Shown here: one piece after another, positions 37,823 through 44,961 of the stretch
Layout: the number at the start of each line of letters is the position of its first letter
Numbering within the stretch: position 1 is the first letter of the stretch
DNA from: Oscillospiraceae bacterium
GTDB taxonomy: Bacteria > Bacillota > Clostridia > Oscillospirales > CAG-272
DNA: 64,000 nucleotides
Direction of reading: 5' to 3'
NCBI GenBank assembly: GCA_015064725.1
Contig: SVRQ01000002.1
Span: forward strand, 17,972-81,971
Notes under the pieces: model-generated
Database searches by the model: none
What the model saw: only the letters and a program-made list of their open reading frames with translations
Told to the model about the DNA's origin: nothing
Translations under genes and position numbers: made by a program

Positions 37823-39178
37823 ATGAAAATAGCAATTATAAACGGAAGCCCCAAGGGAAAATACAGCATAACCTTGCAGACCTCTCTCTATCTTGAGAAA
37901 AAATATCCCGAGCACGAATTTTGCGTGCTTCACGCCGGGCAGACGATAAAGGCGCTTGAAAAGGATTTTTCTGCGGCAAAAGAGCTGCTGTCTTCTTGCG
38001 ATGCGGTGGTGTTCTCCTACCCCGTATATACGTTCCTTGCCCCCTCTCAGCTCCACAGATTTATAGAGCTTATGAAAGAGAACGGTGCGGACGTGTGCGG
38101 AAAATACGCAACTCAGATATCTACCTCCAAGCATTTCTATGACGTTACAGCGCACAAATATATCGAAGAAAATGCGCTCGATATGGGAATGCGCTATATC
38201 CGTGGGCTTTCTGCGGATATGGAGGACTTGCTTTCTGAAAAAGGACAAAATGATGCGGAAAAATTCTTTGAACGCTTCCTTTGGTCCGTAAAAGAGGGCA
38301 TTTACACATCACAACAAGGCGAAAAGACGGAGTTTTGCCCCGTCCCCGCGACTGTGCCTGAAATTTTATCCGCAGAAAAGAAAACCGGCAAGGATATTCT
38401 TATCCTTACCGACAACACGGATGCACAGTCCGCGCTTGCTTCTATGATAGCTCGCTTCCGTGCGGTATTCCCGTACGAAACAAGAGTCGTAAACATTTCA
38501 GAATATCCGCTTGCAGGCGGTTGTCTTGGCTGCTTCCGCTGTGCCGTTTCCGAAAAATGCGTATATCGCGACGGATTTGACACGTTCCTGCGCGAAAATA
38601 TTCAAAAAGCGGATGCGATAGTCTATGCTTTTAATATTTCGGACCACTCCATGGGTTCGCGCTTCAAAATGTACGATGACAGAAACTTCTGCAACGGACA
38701 CAGGACTGTGACCGTCGGTATGCCGGTGGGCTATCTTGTTTGCGGCAAATATTCCGAGGAAAACAATCTTCGTACCGTTATAGAGGCAAGGAGCGAAACG
38801 GGCGGCAACTTCCTTTCGGGTGTTGCCACTAACGAATTCAGTACGGATGCGGAAATTGATGCGCTTTCAAAGAGTCTTTGCTTCGCGCTTGAAACGGGTC
38901 ATACCGTGCCGCAGAATTTCTGGGGCGTGGGCGGAATGAAGATATTCCGTGACCTTATCTATCAGATGCGCGGAATGATGCGTGCGGATCATAAATTCTA
39001 TAAAAAACAGGGAATATACGATTTCCCACAGAAAAAACGATTGACGTCTATGAAAATGTATCTTGTGGGAATGCTTCTTTCAAGCGATAAGATACTTTCC
39101 AAAATGGGTAACAAGATGAATGAAGGAATGATCGCTCCGTACAAAAAACTGTTTGAAAAAATGGAAAATAAAAAGTAA
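37823..39178 (+). CDS. Tandem flavodoxin-fold NAD(P)H-dependent FMN reductase / iron-sulfur flavoprotein
   Basis: Domain 1: IINGSPKG..SIT, DAVVFSYPVY. Domain 2: GCLGCFRC.....C..RDGF, ADAIV, FK...DR. Confidence 0.75.
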   Translation: MKIAIINGSPKGKYSITLQTSLYLEKKYPEHEFCVLHAGQTIKALEKDFSAAKELLSSCDAVVFSYPVYTFLAPSQLHRFIELMKENGADVCGKYATQISTSKHFYDVTAHKYIEENALDMGMRYIRGLSADMEDLLSEKGQNDAEKFFERFLWSVKEGIYTSQQGEKTEFCPVPATVPEILSAEKKTGKDILILTDNTDAQSALASMIARFRAVFPYETRVVNISEYPLAGGCLGCFRCAVSEKCVYRDGFDTFLRENIQKADAIVYAFNISDHSMGSRFKMYDDRNFCNGHRTVTVGMPVGYLVCGKYSEENNLRTVIEARSETGGNFLSGVATNEFSTDAEIDALSKSLCFALETGHTVPQNFWGVGGMKIFRDLIYQMRGMMRADHKFYKKQGIYDFPQKKRLTSMKMYLVGMLLSSDKILSKMGNKMNEGMIAPYKKLFEKMENKK

Positions 39179-39663: not shown

Positions 39664-39692
39664 TTGACAGCACAACAAGCGGATGTTATAAT
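39664..39692 (+). promoter_or_regulatory. Sigma-A type promoter of the enoate reductase/AcnX operon
   Basis: TTGACA-17 nt-TATAAT with extended -10 TG. Confidence 0.7.
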
Positions 39693-39756
39693 ATTTATAT
39701 ATTTGTTATATTTATACACTTTGCAAGTTGAAATATCTACGAAAGGATAATTTATT

Positions 39757-41826
39757 ATGAATCAGATCGACAAAAAATACGAGGCGCTGTTTACCCCTTG
39801 GAAGATCGGCAATGTGGAGATTAAGAACCGCATAGTTATGTGTCCTATGGGCGGAACGTCGCTTTTCGGCTGGTTCGAGCTTGGCGGCTGCCACTTTGAC
39901 AAAGAGGCGGCAAAGCTTTTCCTTGAACGAGCAAAAAACAACGTGGGACTCATCATCCCCGGAATCGCGCCCCTGCGCGACACCTTCTGGGGCAAATGGC
40001 TCTGGCAGAACCCAAAAATGTTTGAAGAGCTTAAAGTCTTTATGGAGGAGATACATAAAACGGGCGCAAAGCTGTTTATTCAGCTTACGGCGGGTATGGG
40101 ACGTTCCTGGGCGATAACGGAGCTTGTTGCGCCCTTGCACAAAAATAAGTTTACGCGCGCGCTCATCAAGCCTATCATAGATACTTCCCACGAGCTTGCA
40201 AGTCCCAGCCCGCAGAAGTCCCGCTGGGCACACGATATTGAATGCCCCGAAATGACCGTGGAGCAGATACACGAAATTATAGAAGCTTTCGCGAAGACGG
40301 CGAAGCTCTGCCGCGATGCGGGCGTTGACGGTGTAGAAGTCCACGCCGTTCACGAGGGCTACCTTCTTGACCAGTTTGCAATAGAGTTTTTCAACAAACG
40401 CACGGACGATTACGGCGGCAGCTTTGAAAACCGCTACCGCTTTGCAACGGACGTTGTAAAGGCTATAAAAGAAGCGTGCGGAGAAGATTTCCCCGTTTCG
40501 CTCCGCTACTCCGTAGAATCCAAGATGAAGGGCTTCTGCGAAGGCGCTATGCCCGGCGAGGATTACGTTGAAGTCGGCAGAAATATGGAAGAATCCGAAA
40601 AAGCCGCAAAATATCTTCAGGATGCCGGCTACGATATGCTCAACGCGGATAACGGTACGTACGACTCCTGGTATTGGGCTCATCCGCCGATGTATATGCC
40701 CGAAAACTGCAACCTCGATGACGTTGCACATATTAAGAAATTCGTTGATATCCCCGTTGTTTGTGCGGGCAGAATGGATGCCGAGGTCGGTGCTGCCGCC
40801 GTTGCACAGGGCAGGATAGACGCTGTCGGCGTTGCACGCCAATTCCTTACTGATCCCGAATGGGTAACAAAGATGATAGAGGACAGGGTAGAGGACATCA
40901 AGCCTTGCATATGCTGCCACGCAGGCTGCTTTAACTTCTCCTCCTCCAAGGGTCATGCAAACACGCAGGACCTTACGGATACGATGGGACTTGCGCGCTG
41001 CGCTCTCAACCCCGAAACGATGCAATCGAAGAAATATTACGTAGAGCCTGCAAAGAAGCAGAAGAAGATAGCCGTTATCGGCGGCGGTATCGGCGGTATG
41101 GAGGCTGCTATCCTCCTTGCCAAGCGCGGCCATAAGGTAACTCTCTACGAAAAGAGCGATAAGCTTGGCGGCGTATTTATCGCGGCGGCAGCCCCCTCCT
41201 TCAAGGAAAAGGACAGAGCTCTTATCGCGTGGTACATCCGCGAGCTTGCAAAATATCCCATCGATGTGAAGATGAACACCGAAATTACGGACGTGAAAGC
41301 GCTCGACGCAGATGAAATTATCGTTGCAACGGGTGCTAAAGCCAAGAAGATCCCCATTAAAGGCGCGGACACGGCTATAGAAGCTGTAGATTTCCTCCTT
41401 GGCAAAGCCGAGGTCGGAGAAAACGTTACCGTTATCGGCGGCGGTCTTACGGGCTGTGAAATAGCATATGAGCTTTACCTTAACGGCAAAAAGCCCACTA
41501 TCGTGGAAATGCAGGATGACCTTATCACAACAAAGGGCATCTGCCTTGCCAACACAAGCTACCTTCGTGATTTCTTCAAAACGAACAAGGTTCCCGTTCA
41601 CCTTGAAACATCCCTCTGCGAGATAGGAGAGGGCAAGGTTACGGTTAAAGATAAAGACGGCAAGACGTTTGATATTGCCGCAGATTCCGTTATTATGTCC
41701 GTGGGCTACAACCCCGCGCCCGTTGTTTCCAAGGGCAAAAACGTTCACGTTATCGGCGATGCCGCTTCCGTGGGCAACCTCAGAACAGTTATCTGGGGCG
41801 CTTGGGACGTATGTATGAAGCTGTAA
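39757..41826 (+). CDS. 2-enoate reductase-like FMN/FAD/4Fe-4S oxidoreductase (Old Yellow Enzyme family)
   Basis: LFTP.KIG..EIKNRIVM.PMG, EVHAVHEGYLLDQF, NKRTDDYGGSFENR, CICCHAGC...C.LNP, IGGGIGGMEAA, IGGGLTGCE. Confidence 0.88.
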   Translation: MNQIDKKYEALFTPWKIGNVEIKNRIVMCPMGGTSLFGWFELGGCHFDKEAAKLFLERAKNNVGLIIPGIAPLRDTFWGKWLWQNPKMFEELKVFMEEIHKTGAKLFIQLTAGMGRSWAITELVAPLHKNKFTRALIKPIIDTSHELASPSPQKSRWAHDIECPEMTVEQIHEIIEAFAKTAKLCRDAGVDGVEVHAVHEGYLLDQFAIEFFNKRTDDYGGSFENRYRFATDVVKAIKEACGEDFPVSLRYSVESKMKGFCEGAMPGEDYVEVGRNMEESEKAAKYLQDAGYDMLNADNGTYDSWYWAHPPMYMPENCNLDDVAHIKKFVDIPVVCAGRMDAEVGAAAVAQGRIDAVGVARQFLTDPEWVTKMIEDRVEDIKPCICCHAGCFNFSSSKGHANTQDLTDTMGLARCALNPETMQSKKYYVEPAKKQKKIAVIGGGIGGMEAAILLAKRGHKVTLYEKSDKLGGVFIAAAAPSFKEKDRALIAWYIRELAKYPIDVKMNTEITDVKALDADEIIVATGAKAKKIPIKGADTAIEAVDFLLGKAEVGENVTVIGGGLTGCEIAYELYLNGKKPTIVEMQDDLITTKGICLANTSYLRDFFKTNKVPVHLETSLCEIGEGKVTVKDKDGKTFDIAADSVIMSVGYNPAPVVSKGKNVHVIGDAASVGNLRTVIWGAWDVCMKL

Positions 41827-41961
41827 GCTTCATACAGTGAAATTGCGGCTTTGCCGCAGTGAAATTCGCCTTCAGCGAATGAAATGTTGCTTTGCAACGT
41901 GAAATATTTCTCTTCGGGAAATGTTTAGGTTGATATTCCGCGCATATGCGCGGAATATCAA
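41812..41961 (+). repeat. Array of short hairpins separated by a repeated TGAAAT motif
   Basis: TGAAAT at 41838, 41860, 41880 and 41900, each followed by a different 4-6 bp stem-loop. Longer palindromes lie at both ends. Confidence 0.7.
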
Positions 41962-41990
41962 AAATTAAATTATAAAGAAAGGTATTTGAT

Positions 41991-43265
41991 ATGATCCTTA
42001 CTAAAGAACAGCAGGCTATACTTGATGGGGAAAAGGGCGAAACTCTTGCCAAGGTAATGAAAACGCTCGTTATGTACGGCGACGCTTTTGAAGCGGAAAA
42101 GCTTGTACCCATCACTTCAAAATACAATCACCTTGTAACATCCTTCGGACTTAAAGTAATGTCCCCTGTGTATGATCTTATGCAAAAGCTCCTTGACGCG
42201 GGCGTGGCAAGCGGACAGAAATTCTCCGTTGACCCAAGACCCCTTGATAAAAACGTCCCCGCAAACTTCCTGCAGAACCTTGTGTTCAACAAATTTATGT
42301 ACACAAAGCAGGATTTTTACGAAGAACAGCTTGAAAAGCTCGGCCTTATGGATAAGGACGCATTCTCCTGCGCCTGCTATATGGACGAGGTTGGCAACAA
42401 GCCGCAGAAGGGCGAGGTGCTTTCCTGGGCGGAATCAAGTGCGGTAGTTTACGCAAACTCCGTTCTCGGCGCAAGATGCAACCGTAACTCCGGTATTATC
42501 GATATTATGGGCTCTATCGTCGGATACGTTCCTTATTTCGGACTTCTCACGGACGAGGGAAGAAAAGCTACTTGGGTAGTAAAAGTGAACACAACGAAGA
42601 AACCGGAAGCACAGCTTCTCGGTTCTGCCATCGGTATGAAGGTTATGGAGGACGTTCCCTACGTTGTGGGCCTTGACAAGTGGATAGGAACAGAGCTTAA
42701 CGATGCCGCTTGCGCTTACCTTAAAGATTTCGGCGCGGCAACAGCCTCTAACGGTGCTGTCGGCCTTTATCACATCGAAAACCTCACTCCCGAAGCTGTA
42801 GAGCTTGGCGAAAAGCTTATTGCAGAGGGTGCGAAGGAATATATCATCGACGATGCCGAGCTTGAAAGAGTTCAGAAAAATTACCCCGTTATTTGGAAAG
42901 ATCCCGATGCCGCACCAAAGCTTTGCTTTGTTGGCTGCCCTCACCTCTCCCTTGAACAGCTCAAGGATTGGACGGTAAAGATAGAAGCTTCCCTTAAAGA
43001 AAACGGCGCAAAGAAGGTTTGCATTCCCACTGTGCTTACAGCCGCCCCCAAGGTGCTGGAAGCGTTTGAAAAAACGGAATATGCCGCAAAACTCAAGGCA
43101 ACGGGTGTTATCACGTCGTATATCTGCCCGCTTATGTATATGAACAATCCGCTTTGCAAGAAGATGCCCGTTATAACATCCTCCAACAAGCTTCGCACTT
43201 ATACAAGCGCAAGATACTATACGGATGCGGAAATTCTCAAAGCCATCACAGGAGGTAAAAAGTAA
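41991..43265 (+). CDS. Aconitase X catalytic (Fe-S) subunit, DUF521
   Basis: M.LT.EQQAILDGEKG, FSCACY, WAESSAVVYANSVLGARCNR, GAA.ASNGAVGLYHI...TPEA, VGCPHLS, ICP. Confidence 0.88.
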   Translation: MILTKEQQAILDGEKGETLAKVMKTLVMYGDAFEAEKLVPITSKYNHLVTSFGLKVMSPVYDLMQKLLDAGVASGQKFSVDPRPLDKNVPANFLQNLVFNKFMYTKQDFYEEQLEKLGLMDKDAFSCACYMDEVGNKPQKGEVLSWAESSAVVYANSVLGARCNRNSGIIDIMGSIVGYVPYFGLLTDEGRKATWVVKVNTTKKPEAQLLGSAIGMKVMEDVPYVVGLDKWIGTELNDAACAYLKDFGAATASNGAVGLYHIENLTPEAVELGEKLIAEGAKEYIIDDAELERVQKNYPVIWKDPDAAPKLCFVGCPHLSLEQLKDWTVKIEASLKENGAKKVCIPTVLTAAPKVLEAFEKTEYAAKLKATGVITSYICPLMYMNNPLCKKMPVITSSNKLRTYTSARYYTDAEILKAITGGKK

Positions 43266-43711
43266 TGAAACAGTTTAAAGGAAGAGTAATAGCCCCCGGA
43301 GAAGTAACGGCAGAGGCTGTTGTAACAACGCAGGGCTTCAATACGCTTGCATCTTTCCAGATGGCGCTCCAATTCGGAGATAAAGAGGTAAAATGCGGCG
43401 ATCAGAATAATGCGGAGCTTCACGGCAAGCCCCTTATCGGCAAGGCGCTCTGCCTTCCGCAGACCATCGGCTCTACCACGGGCGGCCTTGTTCTCTACTG
43501 CGCTTGCGCGATGGAAAGAAACCCCGCTTGTATGCTTTTCGCAAATCATATAGATTCCCTTGCGGCGGCTGGCGCTATCCTTGCGGACGTTTGGGTGGAC
43601 GGCGTTTCTATGCCCGTTGTGGACTGCCTCGGTGATGAATTTTTGAACTACGTTAAGGACGGAATGAAAGTTACCGTAAAAGCAGACGGCGTGGTTGAAG
43701 TAGAAGAATGA
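43265..43711 (+). CDS. Aconitase X swivel subunit, DUF126
   Basis: FKGRVI.PG...AEA.V, L.GK...GKAL.LP..IGSTTG (catalytic Ser position), P..MLF...ID..AAAGAI.A. TAATG coupling. Confidence 0.85.
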   Translation: MKQFKGRVIAPGEVTAEAVVTTQGFNTLASFQMALQFGDKEVKCGDQNNAELHGKPLIGKALCLPQTIGSTTGGLVLYCACAMERNPACMLFANHIDSLAAAGAILADVWVDGVSMPVVDCLGDEFLNYVKDGMKVTVKADGVVEVEE

Positions 43712-44724
43712 GAAGATATGCGATTTACGGCGCGGGCTCGCTCGGAACGGTGCTCGGCGCATATATTACCCAAAACGGCGGCAAGATAGACCTTATCAAC
43801 CGCAATAAAGCTCACGTTGAAGCGCTTCGCAAGAACGGCGCGAGGATCACGGGAACGGTGGAAATGACCGTGCCTGTGAACGCTCTTACTCCGGACGAGA
43901 TGGACGGAAAATACAACGTCATATTGCTTATGACAAAACAGCTTTTCAATAAAGAAGTTGTGGCGTTTTTGAAGGATCATCTTTCCGAGGACGGCGTTAT
44001 CGTAACGCTCCAGAACGGGCTTCCCGAGCCCAGTATTGCGGAGATAATCGGCGCGGACAGAACTATGGGCTGCGTTGTTGAGTGGGGCGCGGCATTGACT
44101 GCTCCCGGCGTTTGCACGCTTACAAGCGAGGAGTCCGGTCTTTCCTTCCATATGGGCAAGATGGACGGCATTACGCAATCTCAGTTCAACGAGGTAAAAG
44201 AGCTGCTTGAGCTTATGTGTCCGGTACACGAAGAACCCAATCTTATCGGCGCGCGCTGGTCCAAGCTGCTTATAAATGCCACTTTTTCCGGACTCGGTAC
44301 GGTCGTTGGCGGCGTTTTCGGCGACGTTTCCGAAAACCGCGCGGCACGCAAGGTTGCGGTGCGCTGTATGAAAGAGTGTATAGACGTGGGTCACGCGGCG
44401 GGTGCGGAATTTGCACCCGTGCAGGGCAAGAACATCACGGCGCTCTTTTATTACAAGGGTGCTCTCAAACGCGCCGTTGCTACGGCTCTTATTCCCATTG
44501 CTATGAAGAAGCACCGCAAGATCGAACCCTCTATGCTTCAGGACCTGAAGAAAAACAAGCCCTGCGAGATAGATGCGATAAACGGTATCGTTTGCGAATG
44601 GGGCAAAAAATGCGGTGTTGCAACGCCTATCAATGACAGAATAGTCGATATAGTTAAAAAATGCGAAAACGGCACGCTCAAGCCTTGCGCGGAAAACATC
44701 AAGTTATTTGACGATCTGCTTTAA
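43708..44724 (+). CDS. Ketopantoate reductase (ApbA/PanE) family 2-oxoacid reductase
   Basis: IYGAGSLG, L.TK, TLQNG, RWSKLLINA, PSMLQDL....PCEIDAING, GVATP.N. ATGA coupling. Confidence 0.85.
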   Translation: MRRYAIYGAGSLGTVLGAYITQNGGKIDLINRNKAHVEALRKNGARITGTVEMTVPVNALTPDEMDGKYNVILLMTKQLFNKEVVAFLKDHLSEDGVIVTLQNGLPEPSIAEIIGADRTMGCVVEWGAALTAPGVCTLTSEESGLSFHMGKMDGITQSQFNEVKELLELMCPVHEEPNLIGARWSKLLINATFSGLGTVVGGVFGDVSENRAARKVAVRCMKECIDVGHAAGAEFAPVQGKNITALFYYKGALKRAVATALIPIAMKKHRKIEPSMLQDLKKNKPCEIDAINGIVCEWGKKCGVATPINDRIVDIVKKCENGTLKPCAENIKLFDDLL

Positions 44725-44778
44725 AAAGTGAATATACTTCCGTAAACCAACGGTTGATGAAAATATTCCCCCCGATAA

Positions 44779-44807
44779 TTGACAATCGGGGGGAATTATG
44801 CTATACT
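44779..44807 (+). promoter_or_regulatory. Sigma-A type promoter overlapping the upstream operon's terminal hairpin
   Basis: TTGACA-17 nt-TATACT with extended TG. The -35 lies in the loop of attccccccgat/atcggggggaat. Confidence 0.7.
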
Positions 44808-44851
44808 GTAAGTGCAGTAAGATGCAAATACAGCCAAAGGAGGCGATTATT

Positions 44852-44905
44852 ATGATCAAAACTTATATTATCGGATGTCATATTTATCGCCTGCAAACAC
44901 TTTAA
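44852..44905 (+). CDS. Putative leader peptide MIKTYIIGCHIYRLQTL
   Basis: Strong RBS aaaggagg before the ATG, 17 codons, directly after the promoter and before a terminator. Confidence 0.55.
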   Translation: MIKTYIIGCHIYRLQTL

Positions 44906-44933
44906 GGCAGGTATTTTCACATAGCTTTTTTAT

Positions 44934-44961
44934 GCACATCCGATCTCGGGTGTGTTTTTTT
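44934..44961 (+). terminator. Attenuator terminator 1
   Basis: gcacatccg-atct-cgggtgtgt followed by a T run. Confidence 0.65.

Follow-up and report, generated by a model that had tools for sequence, protein, structure and literature searches.

Conserved pairing of an OYE-type reductase with a split aconitase X in gut Clostridia, and a proposed CoA-independent removal of beta-hydroxyl groups

The window analysed here, a 64-kb stretch of contig SVRQ01000002.1 from an Oscillospiraceae bacterium, carries four co-oriented genes on the + strand that encode an OYE-type reductase, the two subunits of a split aconitase X (AcnX), and a ketopantoate-reductase-like (KPR) protein. The reductase gene (39757-41826; 689 aa; assigned from the list of open reading frames (ORFs) and Pfam) lies downstream of a sigma-70 promoter, TTGACA-17(TG)-TATAAT at 39664-39692 on the + strand, that follows the consensus at 12/12 hexamer positions; the exact pattern TTGACA-17-TATAAT occurs twice in the window and was absent from all of 100 shuffles. 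It is followed by the genes for the AcnX large subunit with domains 1-3 (AcnX-L; 41991-43265; 424 aa; PF04412), the AcnX small subunit with the swivel domain 4 (AcnX-S; 43265-43711; 148 aa; PF01989), and the ApbA/PanE-like KPR protein (43708-44724; 338 aa; ApbA and ApbA_C). The sequence reads TAATG where the start of AcnX-S overlaps the stop of AcnX-L, and ATGA where the start of KPR overlaps the stop of AcnX-S. The reductase and AcnX-L genes lie 164 nt apart, and because of this gap only AcnX-L, AcnX-S, and KPR are translationally coupled, while the reductase gene is tied to the AcnX genes by conserved adjacency rather than by overlap.

An earlier annotation made from the letters alone (the sequence-only reading) had described the same genes, promoter, and overlaps, all of which were borne out, and had joined the four genes into one CoA-independent reductive pathway. 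The comparisons shown in this study uphold the linkage of AcnX with an OYE-type enzyme and an AcnX of neither characterised type, but not KPR as a conserved member. The conserved unit consists of three genes (reductase, AcnX-L, and AcnX-S), not four.

Conservation was assessed in a close clade of 89 loci with AcnX-L at 72-98% identity, 87 of which included at least 300 nt upstream of AcnX-L. Using tblastn, the reductase was found directly upstream of AcnX-L and on the same strand in 85 of the 87 assessable loci, and AcnX-S was located downstream of AcnX-L in 88/89, the single miss being a contig end. One of the two exceptions without an adjacent reductase (genome G037) has a 72% reductase orthologue on another contig. 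These tblastn locus counts are the ones to use, as antisense ORFs displaced the core genes in the clustering of greedily picked ORFs, which recovered too few of them (72, 66, and 57 loci). Among 41 related genomes the distribution of AcnX-L was patchy (12/41), and reductase orthologues of at least 58% identity were present in 11, all of which have AcnX-L; the twelfth AcnX genome holds a contig-edge AcnX fragment only, and 29 genomes have neither gene. As these relatives are kin, their counts are not independent and describe a pattern, not a statistic. Of nine loci from relatives, eight have the reductase, AcnX-L, and AcnX-S side by side, and none has KPR. In genome G012, where AcnX-L was not found, a 96%-identical reductase fragment (residues 4-142) lies near a contig end (G012:C41:450-866); the fragment might be a relic, part of a copy that was not assembled, or a product of faulty binning.

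In a scan across bacteria and archaea with a single genome for each species, at least 596 stretches encoded an AcnX relative, and the best 80 of these (80-93% identity) were used for locus comparison. The best 80 derive from metagenome-assembled genomes (MAGs) labelled Acutalibacteraceae, Oscillospiraceae, Clostridia, or Eubacteriales, besides two labelled Anaeroplasmataceae and one labelled Erysipelotrichaceae. A body site was named for 25 of the 80, in all cases hindgut (ruminant caecum, colon, or rectum), and metagenomes hold thousands of 90%-identity clusters of the clade. The AcnX clade is enriched in animal hindguts and spreads between families. The AcnX-L genes in MAGs labelled Anaeroplasmataceae and Erysipelotrichaceae (L058 and L066 at 86-88%, L088 at 84%; loci are numbered with the prefix L, genomes with G) suggest transfer between classes, unless the contigs were mis-binned.

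The genes flanking the module vary between genomes. When the genes of the 80 loci were clustered de novo, a MarR regulator was the only further real recurrent neighbour (13/80), and no transporter, CoA-transferase, CoA-ligase, or other CoA enzyme recurred near the module. The MarR protein is ~155 aa long and encoded directly upstream of the reductase in the same orientation (L021, L030, L033, L034, L036, L044, L047, L048, L054, L062, L077, L081, and L087); it is not found in the window, which has the perfect consensus promoter in that place.

The pairing extends to deeper relatives of AcnX, which were drawn from 401 evenly sampled genomes of the phylum, of which 24 have an AcnX-like gene at E <=1e-15. 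Every relative of 37-59% identity adjoins an OYE-type FMN/FAD enzyme, in other arrangements. In a clade with AcnX-L at 54-56%, the order is sigma-54 enhancer-binding protein (EBP, with a PAS domain), OYE (40-42%), AcnX-L, and AcnX-S in 3/3 loci; a second clade at ~58% shows AcnX-L, AcnX-S, and OYE (31%) in 8/8 loci; and the single locus found at 37% has AcnX-L, AcnX-S, and OYE (33%) behind a sigma-54 EBP. No OYE gene was found within ~6 kb of AcnX at 14 distant loci (26-33% identity). The AcnX-OYE pairing is older than the window-type cassette, and the linkage of this AcnX with an OYE reductase, whose conservation the sequence-only reading had put up for testing, held in the neighbourhood check. 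That the reductase and AcnX are merely neighbouring genes without a shared pathway is very unlikely. The 164-nt structured spacer in the window and the two close-clade loci without an adjacent reductase would fit such a view, but the near-constant adjacency in the close clade, its recurrence in rearranged form in three further clades, the coinciding presence and absence in the 41 relatives, and a median spacer of 26.5 nt between reductase and AcnX-L (84 loci) all speak against it.

The nearest named organism for the ~58% clade is Capillibacterium thermochitinicola, and relatives of the Capillibacterium-type AcnX at 66-74% identity occur in the cultured Tissierella carlieri, Caloramator, Brassicibacter mesophilus, Tepidanaerobacter, and Thermoanaerobacter, where they are annotated only as 'aconitase X' or 'DUF521'. 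In 6/8 loci of the Capillibacterium-like clade (L100, L124-L128), a gene for a methyl-accepting chemotaxis protein is divergent from AcnX-L; no ligand-binding family was recognised in its sensor domain, and it may sense the pathway substrate. The AcnX-linked reductase of L128 (8921-11449) lies in three pieces with gaps of ~140-170 nt and is interrupted or broken. The AcnX/OYE genes of L102, L118, L119, and L103 follow a PAS-domain sigma-54 EBP, and immediately upstream L119 additionally encodes another EBP, a Met-gamma-lyase-like protein, and a transporter of the NhaC type.

The AcnX subunits are well supported by profile and structure searches. AcnX-L scored 311 bits against PF04412 (cut-off 31.5) and AcnX-S 43 bits against PF01989, AcnX_swivel (cut-off 27), and the distribution of domains 1-3 and domain 4 over separate adjacent ORFs is that of a split, Type-II AcnX. 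The best solved relative is TkAcnX, an archaeal mevalonate-5-phosphate dehydratase: AcnX-L matched 7cnr_A (phmmer 5.5e-40; family profile E 2.7e-92), and AcnX-S matched 7cnr_B (6e-08) with Ser70 aligned to Tk Ser62. An AF2 model of AcnX-L (pLDDT 95) retrieved 7cnr_A in Foldseek (E 1.6e-31; TM 0.80/0.87) and reached TM 0.80 to AtAcnX 7cnp_A, the cis-3-hydroxyproline type, while classical aconitases gave only TM 0.5-0.57.

Mapping of the AcnX residues rests on the descriptions of TkAcnX and AtAcnX by Watanabe et al. 2021 (PMC8184944). C127, C316 (in GCPH), and C379 (in ICP) occupy the positions of the Tk ligands Cys110, Cys283, and Cys342, which predicts a [4Fe-4S]-type site of the three-Cys archaeal kind. 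E148-S149-S150, K400, and Y404 of AcnX-L align to the residues of TkAcnX and AtAcnX that bind the C3 hydroxyl and the carboxylate, and Ser70-Thr71 of AcnX-S, in GSTTG, align to the general base and its neighbour. The retention of three Cys and the swivel Ser, proposed from the letters, is thus confirmed by alignment, and every motif listed at the time (SCACY, GCPH, ICP, GST, RCNRNS, and TSSNK) is present in the translations. The catalytic and specificity positions are invariant in 89/89 AcnX-L and 84/84 AcnX-S sequences of the clade. HLVTSF, DPRP, NxLAS, DQNN, and GSTTG also occur in the sister clades with a linked OYE, to as low as 54% identity, and Lys55 does not.

Residues that mark the two characterised activities are replaced. 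Of the binders of cis-3-hydroxyproline, At Asp203 is replaced by Val49, Trp35 by Leu28, and Ile206 by Phe52, with Thr72 alone kept; an alanine mutant of At Asp203 is almost inactive (PMC8184944). The NCBIfam equivalog for this dehydratase (C3LHyp, NF051439) scored 137 bits against a cut-off of 700. Of the binders of mevalonate 5-phosphate, Tk Asn53 is replaced by Lys55, Asn79 by Asp81, and Gly48-Val49-Ser50 by Thr50-Ser51-Phe52, in a phosphate loop whose alignment is the least certain part (model pLDDT 77 at residues 51-60). HMG-CoA reductase was found in 0/5 carrier genomes and IspH of the MEP pathway in 5/5; the proline-racemase family PF05544 was found in 0/5, with Pyr2C reductase families outside this search. 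Proline racemase, mevalonate, and panB/panC genes, noted earlier as missing from the window, were not found in its annotated part (35.7-49 kb) or genome-wide in the carriers searched. The substrate is predicted to be neither cis-3-hydroxyproline nor mevalonate 5-phosphate, and the view that this AcnX belongs to neither characterised type withstood each of these comparisons. A bacterial phosphomevalonate (mevalonate 5-phosphate) dehydratase is the least probable of the functions considered and scarcely credible: TkAcnX is the closest structure and sequence and shares the three-Cys site, and one source labels a relative 'phosphomevalonate dehydratase large subunit-like', but the phosphate ligands are changed (Lys55, Asp81, Thr-Ser-Phe), the carriers have IspH in place of HMG-CoA reductase, and a patchy distribution is unlike that of an essential isoprenoid step.

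Types IIc to IIf are bacterial AcnX subclasses without the landmarks of either known activity (Watanabe et al. 2021, PMC8184944), and by its sequence the AcnX of the window fits these uncharacterised subclasses as a group. Within the pocket, Val49, Phe52, and Leu28 suggest a non-polar part of the substrate, and Asp81, Arg83, and, in the window clade, Lys55 suggest a charged distal group.

The reductase matched Oxidored_FMN (PF00724, 193 bits) and Pyr_redox_2 (PF07992, 132 bits), and its build of an FMN TIM barrel, a Cys cluster motif, and an FAD/NAD(P) domain is the architecture of the OYE 2-enoate-reductase (2-ER) subfamily. His196, His199, and Tyr202 are invariant across six AcnX-linked OYEs. 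A His/His (or Asn) pair has a general role in OYE alkene reductases, and the sequence-only reading took AVHEGY-type enoate reductases to act on free 2-enoates. A Tyr serves as the proton donor in OYE alkene reductases (PMC11759058), and clostridial 2-enoate reductases reduce free-acid 2-enoates (PMC5882074). The Cys motif of the reductase is C384-x2-C387-x3-C391-x23-C415, and that of the 2-ER subfamily is CX2CX2-3CX11C (PMC11759058); the last spacer is x23 in the window and x11 in the sister locus L102, and the more distant three of the six AcnX-linked reductases carry a Cys-poor variant of the motif. The top NCBIfam models, both below cut-off, were BilR-long (372 bits; cut-off 750) and BaiCD (366 bits; cut-off 825), and the top PDB matches were 2-naphthoyl-CoA reductase 6qkg (5e-59) and FadH 1ps9 (1e-54). 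A look-up in the ESM Atlas returned generic 'oxidoreductase' clusters only.

The same flavoenzyme might work in the opposite direction and desaturate or oxidise an acid or amine, with AcnX hydrating the enoate in a CoA-free route resembling beta-oxidation, or AcnX might be an enoate isomerase that feeds the reductase. Aconitase-family reactions are reversible, dehydrogenases and a demethylase are found in the 2-ER subfamily (PMC11759058), and sequence fixes no direction. I nevertheless regard this as improbable, given that the hosts are strict gut anaerobes by their record titles, the module holds no obvious acceptors, reductases driven by NADH are built with such an FAD/NAD(P) domain and Fe-S wire, and the reductase retains the His-His-Tyr triad found in OYEs that reduce alkenes.

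KPR matched ApbA (92 bits) and ApbA_C (103 bits), scored above the cut-off of the subfamily model TIGR00745 (183 bits; cut-off 141), and fell below every equivalog cut-off. The panB and panC genes (PF02548, PF02569) were found in 0/5 genomes of the genus, four of which are at least 94% complete, so that KPR is not the PanE of pantothenate synthesis, as had been supposed. The sequence-only reading had named a lack of conserved gene linkage as grounds for refuting its proposal, and for KPR the linkage is indeed not conserved. Apart from the window, KPR follows AcnX-S in only 3/80 loci with enough downstream DNA (L031, L033, and L034, where an orthologue of 83-87% lies directly after AcnX-S), and a 98%-identical relative of the window has 25 nt in place of 1033 nt (43710-44742), a clean one-gene indel. 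Orthologues of 78-81% are unlinked and lie beside a GH3 glycosidase in G002 and G004, two genomes that do carry the module; another in the same identity range lies beside an aldo-keto reductase in G012, which, as said, yielded no AcnX-L. KPR is a wandering single gene, an accessory cassette captured at the operon end in a few strains.

A conserved four-step CoA-free pathway would have KPR make a hydroxy acid from a 2-oxoacid, AcnX dehydrate it, and the reductase saturate the product. In its favour, the ATGA overlap with AcnX-S implies co-expression in the window, the three loci with a closely similar KPR repeat the arrangement, the KPR family includes broad 2-oxoacid reductases, with 2-dehydropantoate 2-reductase entries among the PDB matches, and a role in pantothenate synthesis does not compete. 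Given the sparse linkage, however, the step from oxoacid to hydroxyacid falls outside the conserved pathway; the indel and the unlinked orthologues point the same way, and a 2-hydroxy acid is a beta-hydroxy acid only if it has a second carboxylate. The four-step route is unlikely.

Both characterised AcnX reactions strip a C3 hydroxyl from a free acid and yield a carboxylate-conjugated enoate (PMC8184944). As the products of AcnX are enoates and its partner has the architecture and triad of an enoate-saturating enzyme, reduction of a beta-hydroxy acid is the simplest reading of the three-gene unit. AcnX, as a heterodimer of large and swivel subunits, would bind a free beta-hydroxy acid by its carboxylate and its C3 hydroxyl, swivel Ser70 would take the C2 proton, and the open iron of the cluster would take the hydroxyl, giving a 2-enoate. 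The NAD(P)H-dependent reductase, with FMN, a [4Fe-4S] cluster, and FAD, would then saturate the carboxylate-conjugated double bond. The net outcome would be a CoA-independent reductive removal of the beta-hydroxyl that provides an electron sink for strict gut anaerobes, and in the window strain KPR may supply the pathway or draw from it, for instance by acting as a 2-oxoacid/2-hydroxyacid reductase. I infer that the enzymes act sequentially on one skeleton, in the reductive direction, and on free-acid rather than CoA substrates. A CoA-free conversion of a beta-hydroxy acid via a 2-enoate to a saturated acid, serving as an accessory electron sink and encoded by a horizontally spreading cassette, has in my estimate somewhat more than an even chance of being what the unit does, judged from the genes and their residues.

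Several points weigh against this conversion. CoA thioesters are the substrates of the closest relatives of known structure that the reductase has, so that free-acid specificity is assumed. Members of the 2-ER subfamily further include reductases of CoA esters, amine dehydrogenases, and a demethylase (PMC11759058), and the latter two make another direction or functional group possible for the reductase. The 31% reductase of the ~58% AcnX clade indicates that the partner was replaced or diverged fast, and the chemistry may differ between clades. Many of the 89 close-clade loci come from close relatives, and the counts overstate the independent support. Amino-acid genes also recur loosely near the module, namely an aminotransferase (window and L015), a Glu/Leu/Phe/Val dehydrogenase with an aminotransferase (L103), a Met gamma-lyase (L119), and a proline-racemase-family gene (L102); together with the sigma-54 EBPs near sister clades, they make an amino or imino acid substrate conceivable.

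An imino or amino acid route would have AcnX dehydrate a substrate of the 3-hydroxyproline or 3-hydroxypipecolate type and the OYE reduce the enamine or imine, as a new pyrroline-2-carboxylate reductase. The product of the characterised bacterial AcnX is delta2/delta1-pyrroline-2-carboxylate, and its subsequent reduction gives proline (PMC8184944). The kept swivel Thr72 corresponds to the At residue that binds the ring nitrogen, Asp81 in place of Tk Asn79 could pair with an amine, and the regulators and amino-acid genes of the sister clades, including the racemase-family gene of L102, would be in keeping. This route is nonetheless unlikely: the replacements of Asp203, Trp35, and Ile206 are all invariant, the equivalog score lies far below its cut-off (137 against 700 bits), no proline racemase was found in the five carriers, and the L102 racemase neighbour, considered as a pathway clue, was rejected as it is not kept in 2/2 sister loci.

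Returning to the reductive removal of a beta-hydroxyl, a wider version is that the module represents a third AcnX activity, a portable CoA-independent 'beta-hydroxy acid reductive dehydroxylase' that works as an electron sink in hundreds of species of gut Clostridia and in cultured amino-acid fermenters on a substrate outside the known ones. The chances of this wider version appear evenly balanced. Under it, the substrate might for instance be a 3-hydroxy acid with an aryl or alkyl group, a dicarboxylate with a 3-hydroxyl, or a 3-hydroxy ammonium acid similar to carnitine. The sequence-only reading had put forward a substituted malate-type dicarboxylate or a 2,3-dihydroxy acid, possibly plant-derived, as the candidate class. 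Formation of tricarballylate from citrate or aconitate, as in rumen Selenomonas-like bacteria, was considered on account of outer-membrane genes in one sister clade, and was dropped because the nearest named organism of that clade is Capillibacterium thermochitinicola, 25/25 titles with a body site name hindgut, and part of the pocket is hydrophobic; a literature search on it yielded no enzyme lead. The literature searched contained no paper on an AcnX-OYE module, in a search that included the accessible portions of PMC11759058 and PMC6615313 and had subscription journals outside its coverage.

The 164-nt spacer between the reductase and AcnX-L folds into five consecutive hairpins (minimum free energy -61.8 kcal/mol; z -6.1) and contains a copy of the Gut-1 RNA motif (RF01706) at 41835-41910 on the + strand, which scored 71.8 bits in cmscan (gathering 50; E 2e-13). 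The hairpins of this copy are separated by a constant linker, GTGAAAT. An AT-rich palindrome with 14-bp arms (41932-41959), without a U-run after it on the + strand, closes the array, and the same type of terminal hairpin is found in other long spacers. Compared with the 98%-identical relative, where 31 nt are found in their place, positions 41834-41951 form an insertion. Gut-1 matches above gathering were found in the same spacer of 7/12 other long-spacer loci (L024, L030, L043, L063, L064, L079, and L094). Far from being limited to this operon, the motif has 23 matches in the window genome (1.6 Mb, 70% complete) and up to 34 in relatives, 26/41 of which have a match, on both strands, often at contig ends and as inverted pairs. 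Gut-1 is a dispersed multi-copy hairpin-array repeat in these Oscillospirales-type genomes and not operon-specific. The combination of variable GC hairpins with a constant GTGAAAT/GTGATAT linker in its units argues for selection on structure.

Past the KPR gene, a GC-rich hairpin with a 12-bp stem (44765-44796), terminator-like on the - strand, is the probable right-hand boundary of the unit. It is overlapped by a second promoter-like site on the + strand (44779-44807; 11/12 match), and the flank from 44743 onward is kept in the 98%-identical relative. This near-consensus promoter is followed by a mini-ORF of 17 codons (44853-44906) and by a hairpin that resembles a terminator and has a T-run (44934-44955), and the whole array (44779-44960) precedes a PF09818 ABC_ATPase gene, is kept in the same relative, and looks like a leader/attenuator. 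Just upstream of the module, 37823-39178 encodes a 451-aa FMN_red/flavodoxin-like protein, with a divergent YjbR gene between it and the reductase; the 98%-identical relative lacks this gene at the corresponding position, so that it does not belong to the module.

AcnX enzymes have only two known activities, and as of 2021 four bacterial subclasses still had no assigned function (PMC8184944). The fixed partnership with an oxygen-sensitive ene-reductase makes an open AcnX function directly testable, and cultured relatives (Tissierella, Caloramator, Capillibacterium, Brassicibacter, and Tepidanaerobacter) make the experiment feasible. The unit suggests a route free of CoA by which a beta-hydroxyl would be removed and electrons disposed of, a type of reaction for which gut anaerobes otherwise use CoA esters, and the AcnX clade concerned is both large (at least 596 stretches) and strongly conserved. 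The Gut-1 orphan motif is now placed in named lineages and shown as a dispersed repeat.

With regard to known systems, Gut-1 was described as a likely non-coding RNA that stands alone and had been seen in human gut metagenomes only (Weinberg et al. 2010, PMC2864571), whereas the copy in the window sits inside an operon as one of many dispersed repeats. KPR shares both Pfam domains and a score above the TIGR00745 cut-off with the PanE/ApbA family, and differs from the enzymes of pantothenate synthesis in the absence of panB/panC from the genus searched, in scoring below the equivalogs, and in its unrelated contexts. The reductase has its architecture in common with clostridial 2-enoate reductases (EC 1.3.1.31, e.g. 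FldZ) and the OYE 2-ER subfamily (FadH, 2-naphthoyl-CoA reductase, BaiCD, and BilR), along with the His-x-x-His-x-x-Tyr motif and the oxygen-sensitive gut-anaerobe context; it departs from the subfamily by ~12 extra residues in the last Cys spacer, and from BilR-long and BaiCD by scores below both curated cut-offs.

AtAcnX, the cis-3-hydroxyproline type, resembles the AcnX of the window in its fold (TM 0.80), in the binders of the carboxylate and the C3 hydroxyl, in the general-base Ser, and in swivel Thr72, and its product class is a carboxylate-conjugated enoate or enamine that is then saturated by a reductase. However, Asp203, Trp35, and Ile206 are not kept in the window, the [2Fe-2S] cluster of AtAcnX contrasts with a predicted three-Cys [4Fe-4S] type (with a Cys at the At Ser449 position and none at the At Cys510 position), and hydroxyproline and proline-racemase genes are absent from the window-type carriers searched. 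TkAcnX (Type-IIb; 7cnr/7cns) shares the split subunits, the three Cys ligands of a [4Fe-4S]/[3Fe-4S] site, Glu-Ser-Ser, Lys/Tyr, and the swivel Ser-Thr. The window AcnX is ~28-35% identical to it, differs at Asn53 (Lys), Asn79 (Asp), and Ser50 (Phe), and has extra segments at ~85-110 of AcnX-L and in the swivel (FQMALQF); window-type hosts have the MEP instead of the mevalonate pathway, and the window-type AcnX is paired with an OYE reductase. Such a pairing has no mention for Types IIc to IIf in the accessible portion of PMC8184944, where these subclasses are bacterial, split, and devoid of both sets of landmark residues, like the AcnX of the window.

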